Of a stretch of 64,000 nucleotides of DNA, positions 40 to 59,994 are shown one piece after another (the stretch's first letter is position 1; every line of letters starts with the position of its first letter). Below the pieces are notes generated by a model. That model saw only the letters and a list, made by a program, of their open reading frames with translations. It had not been told where the DNA came from and ran no database searches. The stretch spans positions 992,001 through 1,056,000 of the forward strand of contig CM000436.1 of assembly GCA_000165345.1 (NCBI GenBank). The letters run 5' to 3'. Position numbers and translations under genes: made by a program.

Positions 40-5499
<5,460 letters not shown>

Positions 5500-5799
5500 T
5501 TTTAATTATAAATAATTGCATGCACAAGAATAAATATAAAATAACTGTGTGTGCGAGAGAGAGCGCGCCAACATTGCATGTTTTTTTTTTTTTTTTTTGA
5601 ATGGAATTGAATTGAATTATAATATAAACTTGAACAAAAGTTATTATTTATTGAAATGAAAGAAACAATTGTAATGCAATTTTTTTCTTTCGTAATTACA
5701 GTAGGAAATATTTGATTTAATTATTATAATAGAAGAAGAAAAAAATTAGAATAGAAAATATATAGAATACCATAGTTAATAAATATATTTATTTAGTGA

Positions 5800-30777: not shown

Positions 30778-31188
30778 ATAAATTCAATATAATTAATATT
30801 TATATAAACTTATTGATATATGTATATATATCAATGTAATTCTTACTATTTGTACTTGTATTTAGATTTTCTAATATTGTATATTGAAAGAATATTGAAT
30901 TAAAAATTATTTGTTATTAATATATTTTTTTTTTTAATTAAATTAGTTTCACTTATTCCCGGGTATAGCTAAAATATGAAAATTCTATTAATTCCCCATT
31001 ATTACCCAATAATTAATAAATTTGTAATCGAAAAAAAAAAATATATATATATATATATATACATATTTATATTTATATTTACATTCCCACAATTAATTTT
31101 AAAAAAGTTGGCAAAAAAAGTATATAACAAAATAATTAGCTCATAATACAAATATTTAAGCCATATTATTTAAATCAAATTACTTAAT

Positions 31189-32191
31189 ATGTCTGTATTA
31201 GTTACTGTTGGTACCACCAAATTTGATTTACTAATAAAACAAGTTGATAAAGTAGAATTTCTTGATCAATTTTAGAATTGGATATAATAATTTATGTATT
31301 CAATATGGGAGGTAATGTAAAATTTCAACGCCACGTGTTTTTATTATTTATTGCATGCATGCAATAACAATAAAAACACGTGTATATTACGTAATTGTTA
31401 TTTAAAAAAATAATAATTTTTTTTAGTGGNGAATATGTTCCAATACCAAGAAAAGTTAAACATAGTAAAATTTGTGATAATATTATTGGTAATAATAATG
31501 AGAAATTTCTTGAAATTAAAGCAATACCTTATATGAAAGAGATTATATATTTAAATTATGATCTTATAATAGGTCATGCAGGGGCTGGTACAATACTAAA
31601 TTCTTTAAGAANTAATGTAAGTTTTATTTATTGGATTATATTAATAATAGTCCAATTATATTAAGTTATTCAAGTTAAAAAAANNATTATTTGAAATAAT
31701 GAAATAATTAATTTATTACTATCTTAACAATAAACTTATTTAACTTAAATACTTAGAGAAAAATGATTGTTGTAATAAACAAATCTTTAATGGATAATCA
31801 TCAAGCTGAGTTAGCAACACAACTCGATAATAATAAATATCTTATTGCTATTGATAATGTTAATGATTTAATTAACACAGTAAGTTATCTTAATAATTAT
31901 TAAAAAAATCATTCTAATTTATTAAAAATATTAACAATTTTATTAATTCCTTAATTTCATATTAATTTATATAATATTTCAAACAAACATATAATTTCCA
32001 ATCATCAATTCATTCTTTTACTTATTTTGAAGATTAAAACTATTACATCTATTTCATTTTCATATGATATCCCTAATCAAGATCAAAATACTGTTTCAAC
32101 ATATCTTATTCCTTTTCCCAAAGCTAGTAATACACACTTTAAGGAAGAAATTAATAAATTACTTTCTAATAGAAATATTTGGAAAGATTAA
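31189..32191 (+). CDS. ALG13: ALG13 (UDP-GlcNAc transferase subunit) as a 4-exon gene: exon 1 31189..31316, exon 2 31427..31616, exon 3 31757..31879, exon 4 32033..32191. Exon 1 needs a 1-nt correction in a T-run near 31270-31275, and the ambiguous base at 31430 behaves as an inserted base.
   Basis: Exon 1 gives MSVLVTVGTTKFDLLIKQVDKVEFLDQF(frameshift)LELDIIIYVFNMGGN, matching the ALG13 N-terminus (FVTVGTT.FD.LI...EF.Q.L...G...L.IQ.G.N). Exon 2 gives EYVPIP...YDLIIGHAGAGTILNSLR, matching VISHAGAGS.LE.L. Exon 3 gives RKMIVVINKSLMDNHQAELATQL, matching KPLIVV.N..LMDNHQ.ELA. Introns 2 and 3 have GTAAGT donors at 31617 and 31880, and acceptors at 31755-56 and 32031-32. Stop TAA at 32189-91. Confidence 0.6.
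31332..31382. repeat. Perfect 14-bp inverted repeat CACGTGTTTTTATT / AATAAAAACACGTG flanking TGCATGCATGCA, inside the proposed ALG13 intron 1.
   Basis: Seen in sequence: 31332-31345 is the exact reverse complement of 31369-31382. The AP2-type TGCATGCA element sits at 31352-31363 between two CACGTG boxes. Confidence 0.8.
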
Positions 32192-32345
32192 ACTAAAAAA
32201 ATTAAAATGATAAAAATTATATACTTTACTATTGTTATTCATTAAATCTTTTTTCACTTTTTTTTAATTCTCCTTTAACATACCCATAAATATTTTTTAA
32301 AATTATTATTCTCAAGTAACTTATTTTCTTTTAATAATATGCACA

Positions 32346-36463: not shown

Positions 36464-36614
36464 TGAACATGAATAAGTTATTTTTGTTATAAAATATTAC
36501 TAGAATTAAAAAGAATTGCCTTTTTCTCTTTATTTTAAATATATTGTTTAATATATTACGTGTCAATAATTTATTTATCACACATATTCATTAAAATAAT
36601 TATGCATCAATAGG

Positions 36615-37020
36615 TTTGGCGCTCTATAAGCATAATAATATATCATACCTTTTAATAGTTTTATTTTTTTCATTAAAACTTACTTCATTTTATTGTTTCA
36701 TCTTTTTTTCATTATTTCATTAATTCTTTCTTTCTCTCCTTAATATATATTAAAGAAAGATTAAATTTTCCTTCTACTATAATAAATATTTTTTATTTTT
36801 CAATCTATTCAAAATCTTTATCTACTAACACAACGCACTATTGCAATTAAAAAATATACATTTATAGAATACAACTGGTTTGGCGCCAAAGACTATTTGC
36901 ATTTCTTTTCCTCCAGTCTATTTTATACCTGTAACAATTCAATTAGAATATTTCCTTACATGCATGCAAGTATATGCATGCATTTATGTGGACCAAAAAA
37001 TACACGTGGGAGGGGCAGGG
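36615..37020. promoter_or_regulatory. Cluster of promoter-type elements in a convergent intergenic region: TTTGGCGC (36615), TTTGGCGCCAAA (36879-36890), two TGCATGCA boxes (36959-36985), CACGTG plus a G-rich box (37003-37020).
   Basis: Seen in sequence. The flanking genes end at 36463 (+) and 37493 (-), so neither promoter is expected here. Confidence 0.5.
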
Positions 37021-37492
37021 AAAAGTTTGAAAGCAGAAAAGGTAAATTAAATATATAATTAATGAAAGTTAGATTTTAGGATTTTTTTTCACTTTTTTTT
37101 AAATCATTTTCATTTAACGCAAATAAAAAATATTAATTTAAAAACGTAGAAAAGATAAATATTTTAGTTACTTGAATTATACAAGAATATTTACAAATTG
37201 TAAATATGTGAGTATATAATCTTGTATAAAACACAAATCAATGAGTTTGTGAAAAATTATTTTTTTTAATTTGATACTGTGGATATTAACTTTTCTTATG
37301 TTGGATTAAAATTATAAGTTATAGTATGAACAGTGAAGGGAAATATCATCTTTTTGCCTTTTTTCTGTTTTGTTTTTTTAGCGTTTCTAAAATGACCATT
37401 ACTTTAGCAGTATTAAAATAATAGTATATCCTGTCGTAAACAATTTTTAAATAAAGCATAATCAACGTTTTCTTATTCACTTATTTCAATTA

Positions 37493-39298
37493 CTATTGTA
37501 CTCCAGGATATCTTCTTATACCAGGAGGGGGAGGCGGAGGAGGAGGAGGTGGAGGCGCAGCTCCTCCCAAAGAAGCACCGAAAGGTGAACCAGTATTCAT
37601 GGGTGAAGATTGCACTGGATTATTTCCTCCCATCATTGGTGGAATAGAAGTTGGGGCAGAATAAGAAGATGATGACGGAGGTAGTGGTGGTGGTGGCAAT
37701 GTAGAGGAAACTGTTTTTGGAAACCCTGAACCAGAAATGGCATCTCCTCCTGACATATATGATGAGCTTGGTCTGGGAGCTTGTGGGAATAATCCTTGCT
37801 GAGGTTTTGGAGGAGGTGGACTTGTTACAAACTGTGAATTCAAAGCCTGTGAGGGAGGAGATATTGCTGGAGAAGAGGCAGTTACCAGAGGAGCTTTTGG
37901 CATTGGAGGAACCGTTGGCATTGGAGGAGCTGCTGGCATTGGAGGAGCTGCTGGCATTGGAGGAGCTGTTGGCATTGAAGGAGCTGCTGGCATTGGAGGA
38001 GCTGCTGGCATTGAAGGAGCTGCTGGCATTGGAGGAGCTGCTGGCATTGGAGCTGCTGGTATTGAAGGAGCTGCTGGCATTGAAGGAGCTGCTGGCATTG
38101 GATGGAGAGGGGACTTTTGAGAATGAAGACCTTGTTCTGATGGAGAAAAGGCCTGGCCAAAGTGGTGCTGGCCATTGGCAGACAATAGTGGAGGAGAAGA
38201 AGAGGAGCTCTCGCCCTTAAATTGAAATTGGCTTGGAGTCTGGGCTCCAATAGTTCCAGAATTTTGTCCCCCCTGTTCTTGGAGAGAGGGCTCCTGAGTC
38301 GGATGTTGATTATTCATTGCAGATTGGAAGTCATTACTGAGCTCAGAGCCAATATGTTGTTGTTGTTGCTGGTGTTGTTCGTTTCCTGATATATTGGTAA
38401 GAACCTCCCATTTACCTTCCGAGTTTTCTCTAAAGAGAGTAACAACATCCTCTCCACTAGAAGCAGCTAAAACTGTTCCTGTTACACTCCAAGATACCCT
38501 CCAGACTGGCTCATTAAAGTTAAGTACTTGGCTACTATGCCAACCTTGTCCATCAGCATCTTGAGTCCAAATGACTACAATTTTATCATCACCGCAAGAA
38601 GCAATAGTCTCAGCAAGAAGATCTACAGATGGTCTCCAAGCAACATCTCTTACCCACTCAGAGTGAGCAACATCCAAAGTCTGATTCATCTCAGAAAGCT
38701 CCTTTGTTTGTGGATCCTGCTTCCAGATACGTATCTGGTTATCACACCCTCCAGAAACAAGTCTTATAGTTTGGGAAGATGGATTTGACGGTGAATTACC
38801 TACAGAGTTAGTTGCTGGAGCCCAAGATACTGAATTTGCTCCATTTGGGTGTCCAAATACCTGCTTCTTTGTCCAGCTCCTAGTTTCTGGACTATATGAA
38901 CAAACAGCTACCGAACCATCCGAAATAGCACAGGCAAATTGAAGCCCAAAATCCCATGGACACCAACAAACACCATTAATTGAAGATAAAAAATCATCAC
39001 AAGAGTAAACAATTTCCCATCTTGATCTTTGAGTTTCTTTCCAAACTAGAACCTTCTTATCATATGAACAAGAAGCTAATACACTCCCAAATGTGGGGTG
39101 AGCCCAACAAACCTGCCAAACTGGCCCTTCGTGACCTCTTAATTCTGCCAAGAAAGTTGGCTGATCCGTAGAGACATCAAATATTCTTATTGTGTGATCT
39201 GATGATGCTGTTGCCAGTCTACGGCCATAATAATCTAATTGTGTGTCATGCACTGGACCAGTATGGCCAGTATCAAAAGTTCCAATAACTTCCGCCAT
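37493..39298 (-). CDS. SEC13: Sec13 (COPII / nuclear-pore WD40 protein) fused to a roughly 300-aa Gln/Pro-rich C-terminal extension. The extension contains about 10 tandem heptad PMPAAPS repeats and a terminal poly-Pro tract.
   Basis: The N-terminal 300 aa match Sec13: DTGHTGPVHDTQLDYYGRRLATASSDHTIRIFDV...LRGHEGPVWQVCWAHPTFGSVLASCSYDKKVLVWKE. The C-terminus has QHQQQQQH, then (PMPAAPS)n, then PPPPPPPPPPPPGIRRYPGVQ. ATG at 39298. Confidence 0.8.
   Translation of the reverse strand: MAEVIGTFDTGHTGPVHDTQLDYYGRRLATASSDHTIRIFDVSTDQPTFLAELRGHEGPVWQVCWAHPTFGSVLASCSYDKKVLVWKETQRSRWEIVYSCDDFLSSINGVCWCPWDFGLQFACAISDGSVAVCSYSPETRSWTKKQVFGHPNGANSVSWAPATNSVGNSPSNPSSQTIRLVSGGCDNQIRIWKQDPQTKELSEMNQTLDVAHSEWVRDVAWRPSVDLLAETIASCGDDKIVVIWTQDADGQGWHSSQVLNFNEPVWRVSWSVTGTVLAASSGEDVVTLFRENSEGKWEVLTNISGNEQHQQQQQHIGSELSNDFQSAMNNQHPTQEPSLQEQGGQNSGTIGAQTPSQFQFKGESSSSSPPLLSANGQHHFGQAFSPSEQGLHSQKSPLHPMPAAPSMPAAPSIPAAPMPAAPPMPAAPSMPAAPPMPAAPSMPTAPPMPAAPPMPAAPPMPTVPPMPKAPLVTASSPAISPPSQALNSQFVTSPPPPKPQQGLFPQAPRPSSSYMSGGDAISGSGFPKTVSSTLPPPPLPPSSSSYSAPTSIPPMMGGNNPVQSSPMNTGSPFGASLGGAAPPPPPPPPPPPGIRRYPGVQ
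37899..38102 (-). repeat. 21-bp tandem repeat (about 10 copies, GCTGCTGGCATTGGAGGAGCT and variants) encoding the PMPAAPS heptads of the Sec13 tail.
   Basis: Direct tandem periodicity of 21 bp. The ORF-track entries 37717..38220 (+) and 37882..38250 (-) are frame shadows of this repeat. Confidence 0.85.
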
Positions 39299-45362: not shown

Positions 45363-46813
45363 TTAATCTAATGTGTTGATGCTTTCAAGGTTTATTGGCA
45401 TTTTACACTCATCTTGATTATTATGTACTTTGTATTTGTGATCATCTTGATGATTTTCAGATAAAAGATAGCAGGAAATAGCCTTAACAGGAGCGGATAC
45501 ACATAATTTAGGCTTAATTTCATCATTTGAATCTTCTTCATTGATTATTCTTCTTTTAAAACAAAGTTTAAAAACCCCAACATTATTAACTAAAACAATA
45601 AGTATAACCAAACAGCCAAAAAATGCAGCAATAGACATAGATTGACCAATCTTATATACTTCTTTAATAAATTTACTAGAAGCTTCAAGATGCAATACTG
45701 TTAAGCTGTTTGAATCTTGTTCAATATTAATATCTTCTCTAGTAGCTAATTTAATTCTATTAATAGCATTAACAAAGTTTTCATTATTTAAAGATGGATT
45801 AATAAAGTGACCAGAATGTATATTGTACATATAAAAACTTGAATTATGTTTATTAACTTTATTTGGTAAGAAGAATAAAATTAAATCCATAATATGATAT
45901 AAACTAAATTCTTCCGATCTGAATCTAATTAAACGTAAAAGAAATAGAGTAATATCTCCAAGTTTCATTATATGCCAAGTTGCAGTTTTTGGAAAGTCAC
46001 CATGTACTAAAGGAGTATTATTTCCATAAAGTCCAACCTTAACAATTCTTTTATTAGGATCTAAATGTTTATGGAACATCCAAAGTTCTAAATAATCAAC
46101 ATCTAATCTTCCTGATAAATTCAGTTCTGTTATATCTGATGAAGATTTTCCTCTAGTTTTACTGGTTTTCATAATAAATGTATCTTCAATAGGATGCTTA
46201 TCAAGAGTCTGATTATCTAAACTAGTAAAATCTCCTTGATTAGTTTCAAAACAAAGACAATTTCTTCCACATCTTCTTACTGGTGCCTTTTTATATCCTA
46301 ATATACCTTGACTTCTTAATACTAGAAAGAATTGATTGTCATCTAGAAATTCAATTTCATCATTTACTCCTCTTTTATTAAATATTTGATTTCCGGTAAC
46401 ATCAGGTACAGTAATTGGACAAATTAGTATAGATGGTGCTTCAAAATAAGGTTGTATACCAGTTGAGGCTAACATGGATACAAACCATCCAGTTTGAGCA
46501 AAAATAATGAATAATAAGCCGCATATGAAATATAATGGAAACCATACAATAAGTTTAATAAAGAATGCAAAATTCTCAGCTTTTCTTGCTTCAATAGATT
46601 TACCAAATGATCCATCTAAAATAAATAAATAAATATATATATATATATGCAAGTCAATAAAAATTAATTAGAAGATTAAAGAATAACTTTATCATTATAA
46701 TTTAATGATAAAATCTCTATTTCTAAAAACTTACATGGTACTACAAAATTTCGAAATGATGAATAAATACTGATAATTACTTCTTTGATTGTATGTATAA
46801 TCTTGCTAATCAT
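45363..46813 (-). CDS. Two-pass transmembrane protein (TM segments near both termini, large middle domain) of about 440 aa. Proposed structure is exon 1 46735..46813, intron 46616..46734, exon 2 45363..46615.
   Basis: The main ORF is open for 59 codons upstream of its first ATG, and the ORF-track start is TTG. Upstream, ATGATTAGCAAG...GTAGTACCAT|GTAAGT provides ATG 46813 plus a GTAAGT donor (46734-46729 on the minus strand). The poly-Y tract TTATTTATTTATTTTAG acceptor ends at 46616 and joins in frame (…FVVP-Y-GSFGKSIEARK…). TM segments are FAFFIKLIVWFPLYFICGLLFIIF and SIAAFFGCLVILIVLV. Confidence 0.55.
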
Positions 46814-47185
46814 ATTAAATAATTTTTAAGATTGATTGCTTTTTTTTTTGTAATGAAATAACCAGATTAATTATTTTATAATTCTTTTTTATGGAATACT
46901 TTTTTTTTTAATTTTTATTTCCTTTTTTCTTATATCTACAAAGATTGAAGAAAAAAGAAATTTATTTATTAGAATGCAAGCAAGTTAATATGTTTATTCC
47001 AAAGTAATGCTTGAAATTTAATCCATTACTTAAATTAGTGTCATTTTATATTCATTCACAGAAATATAAATATATATCTTTATATATAAATATTACCTGT
47101 TATTTAGTTTTTTTTAATAATTTTCAATCAATTCTCTTTTCAACATATTTATTACATGATCATTTTACAATTTAATAAAGGGCAC

Positions 47186-47219
47186 GGCGCCAAAATTTTG
47201 GCGCCGTTGGCGGTACCGG
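47186..47219. promoter_or_regulatory. Perfect 20-bp palindrome GGCGCCAAAATTTTGGCGCC (double E2F-like site) plus GTTGGCGGTACCGG, in the divergent promoter between the 46813 (-) and 47478 (+) genes.
   Basis: Seen in sequence. It is the only GC island in the 660-bp divergent intergenic region. Confidence 0.65.
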
Positions 47220-47477: not shown

Positions 47478-50775
<3,298 letters not shown>

Positions 50776-50894
50776 TATATTAAAGTTAAGTTTTACTTAC
50801 TATTAGTTTTCTAATTATATATTTTAATTAGATTTGATCTTTTGACTTTTCTTCTCTTAGAGAGAGAGAGAAAAATGTTAATGTAAATTCTGAT

Positions 50895-52993
50895 TTATTT
50901 TTTAAATGTTTGTGGTAGAAAGGGATCTCTAATTCCAGTATTAGGATTAGTAGGAGTAGGATTGATTCCGNTTCCAGAAGTTGTATGATGAGGATTAACT
51001 CTGACTCCTGAAATAATGGGAGTAGGGTTCATACTCATCATATCAGGAGTGGGTGTAGTAGGATGAGGATTGATTCTGATTCCTGAAACAATTGGAGGAG
51101 GATTAACTCCAGTTCTGGGAGTTTTGGAAGGACTAATTCTGATACCAGAAGCAAAAGACTGGGGATTGGTCCCAGTACCGGAAGTGGTTGTAGGATGAGG
51201 GTTGACTCCAATTTTGGGGATTGTGGAAGGACTAACTCTAACACCTGATGCATAGTTTTGAGGATTTGTTCCGAGTTCAGAAGTAGGTATAGTAGGAGGA
51301 TGAACTCCAATTCCAGGGGCTGTGGGCGGAGTGGCTCTGACACCTGAGGCTGTTGGTGGAGTGACTCTGACACCTAAGGCAAAGGACTGGGGATTGATTC
51401 CAGTGCCGGGAGTGGCCGTAGGGTGGTGACTCACTCTGACTCCAGGAATAGATGTGGGAGGGTTTATTCCAACGCTTGAAGTGACAATGGGAGGATTCGC
51501 TCCAGTTCTGGGAATGACTGTAGTTTGGGGGCTCGCTTTGACTCCAGGAGTGGGTTTGGGAAGAAGATTGATTCCAGTTTCAGAAGCGACTGTAGAAGGG
51601 TTTACTCCAATTCCAGGTGCGACTGTAGGAGAATTCACTCCAATTCTAGGGGAAATTTGAGGGTTCANTCCAACTCCAGAAACGACTTGAGGGTTCACTC
51701 CGATTCCAGTAGTAATTTGAGGGTTCACTCCGANTCCAGAAGCAATTTGAGGGTTTACTCCAGTTCCAGAAACAACTTGAGGGCTAATTCCAGCTCCAGG
51801 AGTAATTTGAGGGTTCACTCCGATTCCAGTAGTAATTTGAGGGTTAATTCCAACTCCAGGAGTAATTTGAGGGTTCACTCCAATTCCAGAAACTACTTGA
51901 GGGTTTACTCCAATTCCAGGAGCAATTTGAGGGTTAGTTCCAATTCCAGTAGTAATTTGAGGGTTCACTCCGATTCCAGAAGCAACTTGAGAGTTTACTC
52001 CAATTCTAGGGGAAATTTGAGGGTTTACTCCAGTTCCAGGTGCGACTGTAGGAGGATTCNNTCCAACTCCAGNANNNNNTTGAGGGTTTACNNNAACTCC
52101 NGAAACNACTTGAGGGNTNANTCCANCTCCAGNANNNANTTGAGNGTTNACTCCNANTCCAGTNNTAANTNNANNNNNAANNCCNACTCCTANNNNTAAT
52201 TNNNNGNTTCANTNNGAATTNCANTANTAANNNNAGNGTTCACTNNNANTCCAGNANCTTCTGCTAAAGATGAAGATGGATTATTTTTATTAGTATTTGG
52301 TTGTTTCTGAATATAATAAGGATGTGAAATAATATTTCTACTAGTTGTTGTAATATTTGAATTCATATTTGAACTTATCTGAGAAGAAGAAGATAATGAT
52401 GAATTTATTATACCTGTTGGAACATTAAGATTACTTGAAATCATGTTATTTTTAACTTGTATTTGATTACCAATCAAATTCTGTAAATAATTTTGTTGTA
52501 ATTGCTCTAATTGTGATTTATTAATTTGTGAATTAATTACCATAGAAGATACTCCTTCATTCATATTATTCATCATCATCAAATTAGAATGACAAATATT
52601 TGAATTATCAACTTGGATAAATTGTTTCTCAAGTCTTTTCGATTCTATTTCTCCTTGTTCCTGTTCCACTTCTTTTACTCCATTTGTTTGTGTTCCAGTT
52701 ATTCCAATTCCTTGATTATAAATAATTGAAAATCTCTTCACATGTTCTGTGAATAATTCTTGTATTAATTTAAAATCTCTCTCTATCAATTTTAAACTTG
52801 TAAATATTTCATCTCTTGGCTTATTTTTTAATTCCTTCAATTTCTCTTTTAATTGCATTAATGGTGTAATATTTGTATTTAAAGAAGATAAAAGTCCATT
52901 CTCATTTTTATGATAGTTAATATTATTATTATCACTCTTATTAATCGTCTTATTTAATGTATCTCTACGTACCTTTTCTTCCCTTCTAATCAT
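50895..52993 (-). CDS. Probable single gene encoding a coiled/Asn-rich N-terminal region followed by more than 25 tandem decapeptide repeats [G(V/I)NPQ(I/V)(T/V)(T/S)G(I/V)]. The repeat region (about 51590-52260) is riddled with ambiguous bases, so the frame is unverifiable.
   Basis: ORF 52190..52993 (ATG at 52993, MIRREEKVRRD...) runs into N-rich sequence. ORF 50895..51968 is opened by GTG inside the repeats and ends ...RDPFLPQTFKK*. Both are on the minus strand with no intervening stop outside the N-rich stretch. Confidence 0.45.
51590..52260 (-). repeat. 30-bp tandem coding repeat (GGAGTGAACCCTCAAATTACTACTGGAATC-type units) with many N calls.
   Basis: Direct 30-bp periodicity (ttgagggttcactccgattccagtagtaat...). 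Plus-strand ORFs 51454..51660 and 51525..52199 are shadows of it. Confidence 0.8.
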
Positions 52994-57461: not shown

Positions 57462-58361
57462 TTAAAAAGTGATACCAATAATTGTGCATATATTTGAAAT
57501 TATTTTATTTTGGAATTCATTTTTAATTTTCAAAAATTTGATTATATTTTCATTTTCACTTAATAAACGTGTGTTTTTCTCAGATAAAAATTCCATCGTA
57601 TTTTTTCCCTTGAGTTTTACTTCCCAATTAGAATTATCATTATCATATTCTTGATTTTGAGTGTAATAATTACAAGAGTTTTGAGCTAATTCATAACTTT
57701 CTCGTATTTTATAGATTTCCCTTAACTCATTGATCCTTCTTTCATAGTCATGCATTATTATTTCTTGCTTATCACAGTTCCTTTTTAATGTGTAATATTC
57801 TAAATATTCCTCATAACTTAATCCGAACTTCTGCATAGTATTCCTAAATTCAGTATAATGATTAATTTCTAGATTTCTTCCTTTATTACTAATCTGATGT
57901 TCTTTTCCGAACATTAGCTGCAAAGCTAAGTAGTTGAGAGTTTTTTTAATATCATATAATTTTATATGCAAACTCCTTTCTTCATTCCAAATACTTTTCA
58001 TAGTATTAGAGATTTCCTTTTCCTTCTTTTCTACTAATTTCCCATTCGCTTCTTTCAAATTTTCTAACTCTCCAAATAATTTCTCCAAATTCTCCCTTAT
58101 AGAAACTTCCTCGAATGAGCACCCAATCTCATGATCTTCAAGTGCCAAATATATATTCTCTACTATCCTCTTTAATTGATTATATTCATTAGAAAAATTG
58201 CTTCTATATTTATCTACCTCATCCACTCTTTCTTCTTCCTCTTCAACACAATTATCTGAATCTAGTCCAAAGTCCAATGAATTTAAAGATACACTCACTG
58301 TTCTTGGACTTGTGCCTGAATATTCTATTGTATGAGAACTTTGGGCTATTAATTCCTTCAT
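57462..58361 (-). CDS. Hypothetical coiled-coil protein, 299 aa.
   Basis: ATG ORF with heptad-rich composition (LEKLFGELENLKEANGKLVEKKEKEI...). There is no recognisable domain. A GC element lies about 220 bp upstream. Confidence 0.5.
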   Translation of the reverse strand: MKELIAQSSHTIEYSGTSPRTVSVSLNSLDFGLDSDNCVEEEEERVDEVDKYRSNFSNEYNQLKRIVENIYLALEDHEIGCSFEEVSIRENLEKLFGELENLKEANGKLVEKKEKEISNTMKSIWNEERSLHIKLYDIKKTLNYLALQLMFGKEHQISNKGRNLEINHYTEFRNTMQKFGLSYEEYLEYYTLKRNCDKQEIIMHDYERRINELREIYKIRESYELAQNSCNYYTQNQEYDNDNSNWEVKLKGKNTMEFLSEKNTRLLSENENIIKFLKIKNEFQNKIISNICTIIGITF

Positions 58362-58582
58362 TTTTACTTATAATCAAAATATATGTATTTTAAATTAGTC
58401 AAGTGACTAGCTTTTGCATGCAACATATATTTATATTAAGCACTTATTTATAACTCCAACACTCAAATAGAGCTTTTGCTGTCTTTCTTTATATTTAAAC
58501 ATCCAAAAATTCTTCTATCCCTCATTTTTAATATTTTTTAGATGCATCTCCGCCCATACCTAATTTAATTTATTTGTTTGAC

Positions 58583-58608: not shown

Positions 58609-59301
58609 TTTGCTATTTTAATAATTGTTAAAATCTACTTGAAGAGAAAAAATGAAAAATAGTTAGTTACAATTATTTCACAAAGTTAGCAAAGTTTTTT
58701 GTATATCAAATATAAATAGCTTTTATAATCCTATAATAATCAAAACCTTAATTGATATCAATAAAACACGGGGAATTCAATAGTATTGATTCCTCTACCT
58801 CCTCCAAACAAATAAACTCATAATACTATTTGAAAACTCCTTTTTATCCCCTAAACAGTAATTAATGTTATCAATCTATCTAACCCCTCCAAAATACACA
58901 TTTTCTACGACTTAAAACGGATCAATATTCTTTTCATGTATCATTTGACTCCAAAAAAATAATTAATAATTGTAATCCACAAGTACCGTCTCTTAATAGA
59001 CATATCAACTACGCGTCAAAAAGGTACCAAAATAAAAATATAAGAAAATTAACCACTTCTTTGATATGAAATTTAACTTCCAAAGATTAAGAAATAAGTA
59101 TATAAGTAAGTACTGAACACTATCAGATTTCAGTAATACTTTCTAATTTAGACTTGCTTATCTCTTTAGTAAGTCTTGGAAGCAAATTCTTGCATTATTT
59201 AAGTTTTAAAGGTGGAGCATAAACCCATAATAAACACTCTAACGCCCGTACAAGGGCATGAGCTCTCGCATTTGCAGCACTGCTCTGTCTCGGGAGGTAG
59301 T

Positions 59302-59994
59302 ATGTCAGTACTACCTCCTCAATTGGGATCAGCTCTACAATTAGGAGCAGTTATGCAAGCAAATGCAAATAATGCAAGTCCTGGATTAGTGACTCATAGG
59401 ACTCCCAGCCATTCTGTGCCAGGAGGACAATCCCCAACTGTCTCTCAAACGCATAATATTAGTCAACAATCCAGTTCTAGCATATTAGTACCACAAGCTC
59501 ATTTTGAAAGTAATTCATCTTCCAATTTATTGGTGGATATATTATGTGAAGTCGCAGATTTTAGTGTTGATTTGGCTTTAAGACTATCTCAAAGAACTGG
59601 CACCCAATGGAGGCCAAAAATACTCAACCATAATAAACATTTGAAAAGACCAATAACTAGACAACCATTAGAGGATCCAAATAAACCAAAAAGACCTCAT
59701 AATGCTTATACACTTTGGTGTGAACATATACGCCAAAAAGTTCGTGAAAAAGACCCAACTAGATCATTACATATTAAAGACCTTGCAGAAATGTGGAAAA
59801 ATCTTCCTGAGCTCGAAAGATCACCATGGGAAAGAAAAGCACAAGATGTTAAACAAAAGTATCTTGTAGATATGGCAGCTTATCGTACAACTTCTGGGTC
59901 TCCTGGACACCCTCAAGCTTCTTCAGGAACACCTCCGCCTAACTCAATGCAGCAACTTTCTGGAATCCCAAATCAAAGAGAGTTTTATTCGTAA
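59302..59994 (+). CDS. HMG-box DNA-binding protein (about 230 aa from the first ATG). The ORF is open from a GTG at 59212, so a short 5' extension or a 5'UTR intron cannot be excluded.
   Basis: HMG box KPKRPHNAYTLWCEHIRQKVREKDPTRSLHIKDLAEMWKNLPELERSPWERKAQDVKQKYLVDMAAYR. The region is visibly GC-richer than its flanks. Confidence 0.7.
   Translation: MSVLPPQLGSALQLGAVMQANANNASPGLVTHRTPSHSVPGGQSPTVSQTHNISQQSSSSILVPQAHFESNSSSNLLVDILCEVADFSVDLALRLSQRTGTQWRPKILNHNKHLKRPITRQPLEDPNKPKRPHNAYTLWCEHIRQKVREKDPTRSLHIKDLAEMWKNLPELERSPWERKAQDVKQKYLVDMAAYRTTSGSPGHPQASSGTPPPNSMQQLSGIPNQREFYS

Follow-up and report, generated by a model that had tools for sequence, protein, structure and literature searches.

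We describe a near-perfect palindrome in the first intron of ALG13 of Cryptosporidium parvum, in which two CACGTG copies at the ends and a central TGCATGCATGCA are joined by AT-rich filler, its motifs possibly acting in gene regulation and its arms probably being kept as mirror images by copying of the DNA. The element lies in a stretch of 64,000 nucleotides from C. parvum chromosome 8 (the window). The gene carrying it, at positions 31189-32191, is almost certainly C. parvum ALG13 (cgd8_4083/CPATCC_004267) read from an error-containing assembly, as judged by alignment and database comparison.

The first-pass annotation had proposed a four-exon ALG13 gene in an intron-poor genome with a homology visible only once the transcript is spliced, and both statements agree with the Pfam and PDB matches and with the CPATCC_004267 annotation. 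The product matches Pfam PF04101 (Glyco_tran_28_C) with 70.6 bits (curated cut-off 22, E=2e-19), a match reached already with the partly mis-framed model of that annotation as a query. Over 31100-32250 the window and C. parvum CP029787 share 99+% identity, and the spliced reference coding sequence is an exact match to P0001, for which PF04101 is also precomputed, with a product identical to QOY40174.1 (198 aa). In the PDB only yeast Alg13 is matched (2KS6 and 2JZC, E about 2e-13), the named database homologues are ALG13 of fungi, animals and oomycetes, and the model of bacterial PssE/Cps14G reaches 101.8 bits, which is under its cut-off of 120. By sequence, the closest characterised relatives are Alg13 proteins rather than MurG or other GT28 members. 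As in yeast Alg13, the protein shows a GT28 C-terminal domain with GHAGxG and LMDNHQxELA motifs, and the N-terminal VTVGTT loop, GHAGxG and N-x-S-LMDNHQ-x-ELA form invariant columns in the alignment with Cryptosporidium, fungal and oomycete ALG13s. It is predicted to be the soluble catalytic subunit through which, in partnership with ALG14, dolichol-PP-GlcNAc receives its second GlcNAc.

The four-exon model is already known and not new. The locus was named with its three introns, and the discrepancy between the IOWA-ATCC annotation CPATCC_004267 (three introns, four exons, 198 aa) and the Iowa-II model cgd8_4083 (121 aa, two introns) was described before; ALG13 is there without a listed TM domain and ALG14 is cgd7_4933 (PMC9713705). 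RNA-seq is stated to support 100% of the introns in the IOWA-ATCC annotation (PMC8744675). Three introns of 110-153 nt had been read from the window, of which the number stands while the lengths are 115, 140 and 153 nt, the value of 110 nt for intron 1 being wrong because the donor had been placed 5 nt too far downstream of the true one at 31311/31312. GTAAGT donors, claimed for two introns, are present in introns 2 and 3, the donor of intron 1 being GTAATG. In the reference reading exon 1 encodes MSVLVTVGTTKFDLLIKQVDKVEFLDQLLECGYNNLCIQYG plus 2 nt, and the position of intron 1 is conserved in all ten Cryptosporidium lineages examined (Table 1).

Table 1. Exons and introns of ALG13 and sequence elements of intron 1, in window coordinates
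Feature	Position	Strand	Description
ALG13 exon 1	31189..31311	+	123 nt in window, 125 nt in reference; alignment to CP029787, aligns to yeast Alg13
Intron 1	31312..31426	+	115 nt; donor GTAATG, acceptor TTTTAG
ALG13 exon 2	31427..31616	+	190 nt; GHAGAGT motif
Intron 2	31617..31756	+	140 nt; donor GTAAGT
ALG13 exon 3	31757..31879	+	123 nt; NKSLMDNHQAELA motif
Intron 3	31880..32032	+	153 nt; donor GTAAGT
ALG13 exon 4	32033..32191	+	159 nt including TAA stop; C-terminal PFP...IWKD tail
Quasi-palindrome, 51 nt	31332..31382	.	near-perfect; exact-repeat search and folding
14-nt arms	CACGTGTTTTTATT 31332-31345; AATAAAAACACGTG 31369-31382	.	exact inverted repeat
Inner perfect palindrome TTATTGCATGCATGCAATAA, 20 nt	31348-31367	.	
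TGCATGCATGCA	31352..31363	.	two overlapping copies of the ApiAP2 'AP2_1' site TGCATGCA
ATTACGTAAT, 10-nt palindrome	31386..31395	.	close to the main element on its 3' side; candidate binding site or branch-point region

The palindrome is real and exceeds chance expectation. The exact 14-nt inverted repeat around TGCATGCATGCA that had been noticed on first reading is present, and it is the only exact inverted repeat of at least 14 nt with a spacer of at most 40 nt in the window, compared to a mean of 0.19 in shuffled sequences. The sole asymmetry within the 51 nt is an AT (31346-31347) facing a C (31368). As an imperfect inverted repeat able to form a hairpin, the element is predicted to fold with 22 bp and -22.7 kcal/mol (z = -7.1; z = -6.3 for the whole intron), making it second in folding energy among 21,315 windows of 55 nt in the 64 kb, at 31% GC. 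Within the neighbouring 10-nt palindrome, TTACGT[AC]A is shared by C. parvum, C. hominis, C. tyzzeri, chipmunk genotype I, C. ubiquitum and SRR31860986.

The arrangement of two CACGTG around a central TGCATGCATGCA, with AT-rich filler in between, is conserved at +141 to +200 from the ATG across the C. parvum-to-C. canis clade, recurring in C. hominis, C. tyzzeri, C. meleagridis, chipmunk genotype I, one further Cryptosporidium species and C. canis, with hairpin z-scores ranging from -2.9 to -12.3 across lineages. The fillers differ among species yet are mirrored on both arms. The reverse complement of the C. parvum 51-mer is exactly the C. hominis 51-mer, as seen in four hominis-type assemblies and two C. 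parvum sequences, which makes the orientation a handy fixed marker between both species. C. meleagridis has a perfect palindrome of 52 nt, and two isolates of C. canis each have a perfect palindrome, one of 64 nt and the other of 44 nt; what distinguishes the two (a G/T substitution, (AT)n length and T-run length) is mirrored on both arms. C. ubiquitum shows a clean deletion between the two CACGTG copies, and the palindrome is absent from C. felis and C. bovis, leaving as remnants GCATGCAA in C. felis, CACGTG with TTACGTAA in C. ubiquitum and CCACGT in C. bovis. Intron 1 measures 68-87 nt without and 103-119 nt with the element. Lost or absent in these three species, the element is dispensable there. 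C. muris and C. andersoni (both gastric) and C. baileyi were absent from the matches of both protein searches, so that the comparison reaches back to C. bovis. With a palindrome in no more than three or four independent lineages, statistical power is low. A metagenome scan for CACGTG-N5-25-TGCATGCATGCA-N5-25-CACGTG returned 44 contigs, all being unrelated, GC-rich and non-palindromic low-complexity sequence of (GCAT)n, (CA)n or (CG)n type.

These comparisons lend good support to arms that are probably kept symmetrical by copying at the DNA level, and the symmetry looks more like such copying than like selection on a hairpin. Intrastrand template switching, or hairpin-templated repair, at the quasi-palindrome would keep the arms mirror images, and this would account for the mirrored changes, the perfect palindromes of C. 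meleagridis and C. canis, the reversed orientation of C. hominis relative to C. parvum and the C. ubiquitum deletion. Hairpin-loop 'small inversions' are known in plastid non-coding DNA, and small inversions in plastid DNA are reportedly tied to hairpins. The template-switch mechanism is documented (PMC7202029, PMC9435742). The intron-1 element shows the features of a template-switch hot spot, i.e. joint complementary arm changes, perfecting of the palindrome and inversion of the spacer. Like the quasipalindrome hot spots of E. coli, yeast and human, it has inverted arms, a short spacer and one-step perfecting, and it shares with these hot spots and the plastid inversions a spacer exactly reverse-complemented between sister species and a deletion between the repeat ends. 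It differs from the hot spots in being located in an apicomplexan nuclear intron and traced over a whole genus, and in the conservation of its core and end motifs, which a mutational mechanism alone does not predict. The palindrome thereby offers a small and clean case study of arm-to-arm copying, inversion and clean deletion in a nucleus over a well-sampled genus.

Looking at what is conserved within the element, we consider it a putative regulatory cluster of promoter-type motifs, a reading to which we assign slightly less than an even chance. The AP2_1 motif TGCATGCA is bound by cgd2_3490 and cgd1_3520 (PMC3734150, PMC4117751), and TGCATGCATGCA agrees with the AP2_1 consensus [T/C]GCATGC[A/G]. 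In the window TGCATGCA has 6 matches, all outside long ORFs, compared to 0.47 expected, and CACGTG likewise occurs 6 times compared to 1.0 expected, an enrichment resting on these six occurrences only. Four of the six CACGTG copies are non-coding, two of them in the intron-1 element and the others at 37003, near two TGCATGCA, an E2F site and a G-box and conserved in C. meleagridis, and at 58582, where it adjoins TGGCGCCAAAA. Over about 2.4 kb from -700 to +1700 relative to the ALG13 ATG, TGCATGCA and CACGTG are confined to intron 1 in the 10 lineages; no TGCATGCA is present within the 700 nt upstream of the ATG, including the whole upstream spacer of 411 nt. Intron 1 of C. parvum and C. canis shares 61% identical columns and a block of 14 nt, TTGCATGCATGCAA, compared to 28-29% identical columns and blocks of at most 7 nt for introns 2 and 3. 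The comparison shows CACGTG and TGCATGCATGCA to be under constraint, which favours the regulatory reading.

According to this reading, TGCATGCATGCA would be bound by an ApiAP2 factor specific for TGCATGCA, e.g. cgd2_3490 or cgd1_3520, CACGTG would bind some further factor, and jointly with the TGCATGCATGCA sites this would tune ALG13 transcription. Selection would act on the motifs and not on the stem, a step with weaker support. Since each site is itself palindromic, an inversion of the element would leave the presented sites unchanged. The role would be at most modulatory or lineage-specific, because three species do without the element, C. ubiquitum having lost it and C. felis and C. bovis being devoid of it. 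The AP2_1 element of Cryptosporidium and other Apicomplexa (cgd2_3490, cgd1_3520, PF14_0633/AP2-Sp) has a core identical to the intron-1 site, and the copies in the window resemble it also in being over-represented in non-coding DNA beside other promoter motifs. Described AP2_1 sites are located upstream of start codons, whereas the candidate site of ALG13 is found in intron 1, 165 nt past the ATG, at the centre of a palindrome. The var intron of Plasmodium falciparum is an intron-located promoter/regulatory element in Apicomplexa; both would be regulatory elements within an intron of the gene influenced, putatively so in ALG13, the ALG13 element being far smaller and having another motif content. 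As a caveat to the regulatory reading, the element is in the transcribed region at about +165, and motif surveys in Cryptosporidium covered upstream DNA. CACGTG does not feature as a motif in the papers on C. parvum motifs, nor in the review or the survey of P. falciparum ApiAP2 factors, and the other literature matches to it are primers.

Template switching by itself could maintain a palindrome without function, which is a further caveat. In the corresponding alternative, which we regard as doubtful but serious, a functionless palindrome is re-perfected by template switching and tolerated since it is folded out of the way, its motifs persisting as self-complementary cores. Consistent with this are the perfect palindromes with mirrored indels in C. 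meleagridis and the two C. canis isolates, the inversion between C. parvum and C. hominis, the clean loss in C. ubiquitum and the absence in C. felis and C. bovis with ALG13 remaining intact throughout, and the insert-like difference in intron length. However, template switching keeps complementarity and not sequence, yet the 12-mer centre and the 6-mer ends have outlasted a complete turnover of the fillers, with introns 2 and 3 at saturation. Remnant motifs also remain in species without the symmetry, and both motifs are enriched in the window, with all TGCATGCA and most CACGTG copies outside long ORFs and several near promoter motifs.

Combining the regulatory reading with arm copying leads to a more far-reaching model, which we put forward tentatively as one that more probably fails than holds, according to which the intron-1 palindrome is a functional, self-homogenising regulatory module, TGCATGCA flanked by two CACGTG, in a genome almost stripped of introns. 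If this were true, intron 1 would have been retained because it carries the control element of its gene, CACGTG would be a new Cryptosporidium cis-motif, and hairpin-mediated template switching in the nucleus of an apicomplexan would have left a natural record in the flip that separates C. parvum from C. hominis. A conserved cluster of promoter-type motifs within an intron is of interest in an organism of which gene regulation is poorly understood, and if functional it would provide a compact target of ~50 bp for ApiAP2 testing with existing CRISPR tools and nominate CACGTG as an additional motif.

It is unlikely that the element acts as RNA, i.e. as a hairpin in the pre-mRNA modulating splicing, by a shorter distance between 5' splice site and branch point or by a masked site, or as an intronic ncRNA released from the transcript. 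The high stability of element and intron and the arms co-varying across lineages would fit such a role, as would the C. parvum minimum-free-energy fold, in which the 5' splice site GUAAUGUA is paired with UAUAUUAC; both structure and arm co-variation have an equally good explanation in processes acting on DNA, and the pairing of the 5' splice site is missing in C. canis. In C. parvum, 23 intronic ncRNAs were described and suggested as a possible explanation of intron retention (PMC9465071). The intron-1 element is likewise a stable, genus-conserved structure in one of few introns, differing from these small ncRNAs in being known as a DNA sequence with a predicted fold and in having no snoRNA boxes, C/D or H/ACA, as judged by eye. 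Perfect Watson-Crick stems with one-step mirrored differences, including microsatellite length, are unlike the stepwise compensatory evolution of RNA, and the inversion between C. parvum and C. hominis together with A.C mismatches shows that the sense strand is not preferred. Splicing evidently takes place without the hairpin in C. ubiquitum, C. felis and C. bovis, and Cryptosporidium has neither RNAi machinery nor canonical miRNAs. No Rfam family matched the window at the gathering threshold; a permissive scan of 31100-32300 returned miRNA-precursor look-alikes below threshold and on the minus strand only, a generic hairpin effect.

We regard it as very improbable that the cluster is an internal or bidirectional promoter, a start in intron 1 yielding either an antisense RNA or a 121-aa product that begins at MKEIIY in exon 2. 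In Toxoplasma, GCATGC(A) is a mark of transcription start regions (PMC10470533), models of 121 aa starting in exon 2 are annotated for Iowa-II and C. tyzzeri, and the upstream spacer of ALG13 contains neither TGCATGCA nor CACGTG nor an E2F-type site. However, a 121-aa product would be devoid of the N-terminal VTVGTT loop that is invariant across ALG13s, exon 1 is in frame and conserved in 10 of 10 lineages, and the supplements of PMC7840661 contain no lncRNA for cgd8_4083, cgd8_4080 or cgd8_4090. The broken exon 1 of the old assembly accounts for the 121-aa model.

In exon 1 the window is two bases short of the finished C. parvum chromosome, with a C missing after 31269 and a G missing after 31278, and over 7 kb all differences from the reference (poly-A length, the two missing bases and four Ns) fall within one N-containing stretch, 31031-31685. 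For the N at 31430 the reference has a T (GGT, Gly), in frame with the donor at 31311/31312; in exon 2 the N at 31612 is an A (AAT, Asn), and in intron 2 those at 31684-31685 are AA. The tail of exon 1 truly reads ...LDQLLECGYNNLCIQYG, the aligned yeast counterpart being QYGFVRLIIQFG. Two repairs suggested by the first-pass annotation do not hold: the reference shows two missing bases instead of a +1 correction in the T run, and the N at 31430 does not have to be removed, its T keeping the frame once the donor is set correctly. That repair (one T added, N removed, donor after GGTAAT, 5 nt downstream of the reference donor) gives an out-of-frame LELDIIIYVFNMGGNW with no match among orthologues, and an alternative acceptor with N=A was ruled out on the same grounds, i.e. 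orthologues and reference. The interpretation of the frame problems as sequence-quality artefacts rather than pseudogenisation is well founded, an intact gene being present in at least three assemblies of C. parvum and in nine further Cryptosporidium lineages. That the frameshift is real and ALG13 a pseudogene in the source strain, as the in-frame TAG at 31273-31275 of the window as given might suggest, has a negligible probability, both absent bases lying in the one part of the 7 kb where window and reference disagree, a part that also contains the four Ns, the remainder of the gene being 100% identical and the intact 198-aa protein being encoded by those C. parvum assemblies. CPATCC_004267/cgd8_4083 and the window copy are the same locus with no biological difference. 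The two missing bases and four Ns presumably account for the truncated 121-aa Iowa-II model, an assembly artefact worth knowing as it would also explain why ALG13 was once thought to be missing.

We found the region 31100-32250 to be 99+% identical to CP029787, the C. parvum chromosome record (GCA_031892065.1) of the finished assembly used as reference, in a window of 22-38% GC in which long uninterrupted ORFs are tightly packed. Applying the splice sites GGGAG/GTAATG...TTTTAG/TGG, AATAAT/GTAAGT...CTTAG/AGA and AACACA/GTAAGT...TGAAG/ATT to this reference yields four exons (125/190/123/159 nt) and three introns (115/140/153 nt), and the translation is identical to the 198-aa ALG13 protein (P0001). 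The product contains PF04101 (E=2e-19) and the invariant VTVGTT, GHAGxG and LMDNHQxELA alignment columns, its PDB relatives being yeast Alg13 only (2KS6, 2JZC). All three intron positions are kept from C. bovis through C. parvum, and all fetched Cryptosporidium loci share the gene order TIMELESS-like, WD40 (minus strand), ALG13, 278-aa membrane protein and DEAH helicase. The gene model is already known: C. parvum ALG13 (Atcc_004267/cgd8_4083, 198/121 aa) was overlooked in the first annotation owing to its introns and is modelled with two introns and 121 aa in Iowa-II and with three introns and 198 aa in IOWA-ATCC (PMC9713705), an annotation whose introns have 100% RNA-seq support (PMC8744675). 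At codon 9, C. hominis (L006-L008, L014) has VTVGSTKFD, with Ser replacing the Thr of VTVGTTKFD, the nucleotide-binding loop sequence that is invariant in C. parvum and all other species.

The frame of exon 1 is interrupted in the window. A +1 correction in the T run, proposed by the first-pass annotation, is not needed, as alignment to the reference identifies two missing bases, C after 31269 and G after 31278 (CAACTTTTAGAATGTGG against CAATTTTAGAATTGG). The correct tail of the exon is LDQLLECGYNNLCIQYG, which aligns to yeast QYGFVRLIIQFG and is kept in all orthologues. The frame repaired earlier was wrong and open by chance (LELDIIIYVFNMGGNW), and for this reason the intron-1 donor was placed 5 nt too far downstream and the N at 31430 was deleted to regain frame; this N stands for T, completing a Gly codon (GGT), and is in frame. 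Over 7 kb, window and reference show no substitution at all; what separates them is the poly-A length at 31031, both missing bases and four Ns, and everything lies within 31031-31685. The intact protein is found in at least three assemblies of C. parvum. Both results uphold the first-pass view that these are sequence-quality problems rather than pseudogenisation, although the details of that repair were wrong, and a real pseudogene is essentially excluded. The 121-aa model, starting with MKEIIY in exon 2, is the expected annotator outcome with a broken exon 1. Elsewhere, 71 of the 75 Ns of the window lie in 50546-52257, with a dense block at 52060-52257, and ORFs 50895..51968 (-), 51525..52199 (+) and 52190..52993 (-) may be broken by an assembly error of the same type.

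Exons of ALG13 and forms of the intron-1 element across lineages
Feature or lineage	Window coordinates	Element	Remark
ALG13 exon 1	31189-31311		
ALG13 exon 2	31427-31616		
ALG13 exon 3	31757-31879		
ALG13 exon 4	32033-32191		
C. parvum (window, L001)	31332-31382	CACGTGTTTTTATT-AT-TTATTGCATG/CATGCAATAA-C-AATAAAAACACGTG	
C. hominis (three assemblies, one SRA contig)		C. parvum 51-mer, exactly reverse-complemented	
C. tyzzeri		orientation as in C. parvum	plus one T, one A>G
C. meleagridis		perfect 52-nt palindrome	
Chipmunk genotype I		decayed palindrome, 19 bp	
SRR31860986 lineage		CACGTG-TCAGTTT-TGCATGCATGCA-AGAAACTTGA-CACGT	other filler, arms still mostly complementary
C. canis isolate 1		perfect 64-nt palindrome	filler GCAAATATATATATATTTTT
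C. canis isolate 2		perfect 44-nt palindrome, distinct from that of isolate 1	filler TCAAATATTT
C. ubiquitum		single CACGTG, then normal right flank	
C. felis		GCGCATGCAA alone left	
C. bovis		CCACGT alone left	

Within intron 1, the exact 14-nt inverted repeat noticed earlier is confirmed, with arms at 31332-31345 and 31369-31382. Between them lies a perfect 20-nt palindrome, TTATTGCATGCATGCAATAA (31348-31367), the sole asymmetry of the 51-nt element being AT (31346-31347) opposite C (31368); a second palindrome, ATTACGTAAT, follows 3' of it at 31386-31395. No other exact inverted repeat of at least 14 nt with a spacer of up to 40 nt occurs in the window (dinucleotide-shuffle mean 0.19), the folding energy of the element ranks second among 21,315 overlapping 55-nt windows despite 31% GC, and intron 1 folds with z = -6.3. 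Of all 55-nt windows in the 64 kb, that of 59293-59320, GGAGGTAGTA-TGTCAG-TACTACCTCC, within ORF 59212..59994, forms the most stable hairpin (-24.9 kcal/mol).

The protein searches returned no gastric Cryptosporidium species. Among the lineages compared, hairpin z-scores against shuffles are weakest in chipmunk genotype I (-2.9) and strongest in C. canis (-12.3). Besides the inversion, intron 1 of C. parvum and C. hominis differs at one position, and the differences between the C. canis isolates (G/T, (AT)n length, T-run length) are all mirrored on both arms. We infer, with good support, that the symmetry is kept by a single-step DNA process, intrastrand template switching at the quasi-palindrome, which would generate mirrored arm changes as well as a reverse complement between sister species in one step, because independent mutation and selection hardly yield microsatellite lengths that change identically on the two arms within a species, or an exact reverse complement between sisters otherwise separated by one intron-1 difference. 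Small inversions associated with hairpins have been reported in plastid non-coding DNA. Bacteria, yeast and humans all provide well-documented cases of template switching at quasi-palindromes (PMC7202029, PMC9435742). The two CACGTG copies are direct repeats as well as inverted ones, and deleting between them gives exactly the C. ubiquitum state, deletion being the other classic fate of repeats of this kind.

Introns 2 and 3 of C. parvum and C. canis have 28-29% identical columns and shared blocks of at most 7 nt; intron 1 has 61%, with the blocks TTGCATGCATGCAA, CCACGTG and CACGTGTA kept and the element fillers wholly replaced. Because template switching keeps complementarity but not particular words, the centre and ends of the element appear to be under sequence-specific constraint. 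Motif remnants persist without symmetry in C. felis (GCATGCAA), C. ubiquitum (CACGTG+TTACGTAA) and C. bovis (CCACGT). TGCATGCA, the AP2_1 site to which cgd2_3490 and cgd1_3520 bind (PMC3734150, PMC4117751), is enriched 13-fold in the window and CACGTG 6-fold, four of the six CACGTG copies being non-coding: two in the intron-1 element and two (37003, 58582) beside recognised promoter motifs. The copy at 37003 adjoins two TGCATGCA, an E2F site and a G-box and is kept in C. meleagridis; that at 58582 abuts TGGCGCCAAAA, is fused to an E2F site (CACGTGTGGCGCCAAAA) and lies 160 nt from the TGCATGCA at 58415-58422. From -700 to +1700 of the ALG13 ATG (~2.4 kb) in ten lineages, TGCATGCA and CACGTG are confined to intron 1, and the 700 nt upstream of the ATG, whole spacer included, contain no TGCATGCA, CACGTG or E2F-type site. 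Literature searches did not find CACGTG as an apicomplexan motif, and only microsatellite-like matches came from scanning metagenomes for the composite pattern.

Motif conservation, remnants, enrichment and confinement to intron 1 point, tentatively and as our best reading, to a promoter-proximal motif cluster in intron 1 that would act on the DNA level, its palindromic form being a mutational by-product. Since each site is its own reverse complement, inverting the element would change no site, and the flip between C. parvum and C. hominis would be functionally silent. A functionless, self-perpetuating palindrome, which we regard as somewhat unlikely, fits the losses of the element and its insert-like size behaviour (introns of 68-87 nt without and 103-119 nt with it) but leaves the motif conservation unexplained. 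It is doubtful that an RNA hairpin affects splicing or yields an intronic ncRNA: the stability of the fold and the 23 intronic ncRNAs reported in C. parvum (PMC9465071) fit this, whereas perfect Watson-Crick stems, mirrored single-step changes, absent strand bias, the lack of an Rfam family, of RNAi machinery and of canonical miRNAs, and the normal gene structure in hairpin-less species argue against it. An internal promoter producing the 121-aa form is highly improbable, as this form lacks the invariant N-terminal loop and the assembly error accounts for it; the lncRNA supplements of PMC7840661 have no entry for the ALG13 locus.

Neither the palindrome nor its behaviour in evolution is described in the literature searched. 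The element nevertheless belongs to kinds already known, being both an ApiAP2 motif cluster and a quasi-palindrome with the dynamics of template switching. It is a neat example and a testable lead for Cryptosporidium gene regulation rather than a surprise.

Further motif-bearing sites occur in the window. The region 36464-37492, ~1 kb without a long ORF between the convergent DEAH helicase and Sec13-like protein genes, carries a promoter-like cluster of TTTGGCGCC (36878), TGCATGCA (36961 and 36975), CACGTG (37003) and the G-box GGGAGGGGCAGGG (37008), of which C. meleagridis has kept CACGTG and G-box (L011:7804) and C. tyzzeri the TGCATGCA pair (L012:7808/7822). The region probably holds a small gene or ncRNA that has escaped annotation. 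The adjacent Sec13-like WD40 protein (37493-39298, -) has a long, proline-rich C-terminal half with PMPAAPS-type repeats, and the orthologous region of C. bovis is rich in GGT/GGA repeats on the opposite strand. TGCATGCA also occurs between convergent genes at 5517-5524, 18 nt past the ORF 40..5499 stop, and the copy at 58415-58422 precedes the ATG of ORF 57462..58361 (-) by 54 nt. In the divergent spacer separating ORFs 45363..46652 (-) and 47478..50552 (+), two E2F-like GGCGCC sites in inverted arrangement make up a perfect 24-nt palindrome (47184-47207, ACGGCGCCAAAATTTTGGCGCCGT), which looks like a symmetric bidirectional promoter element.
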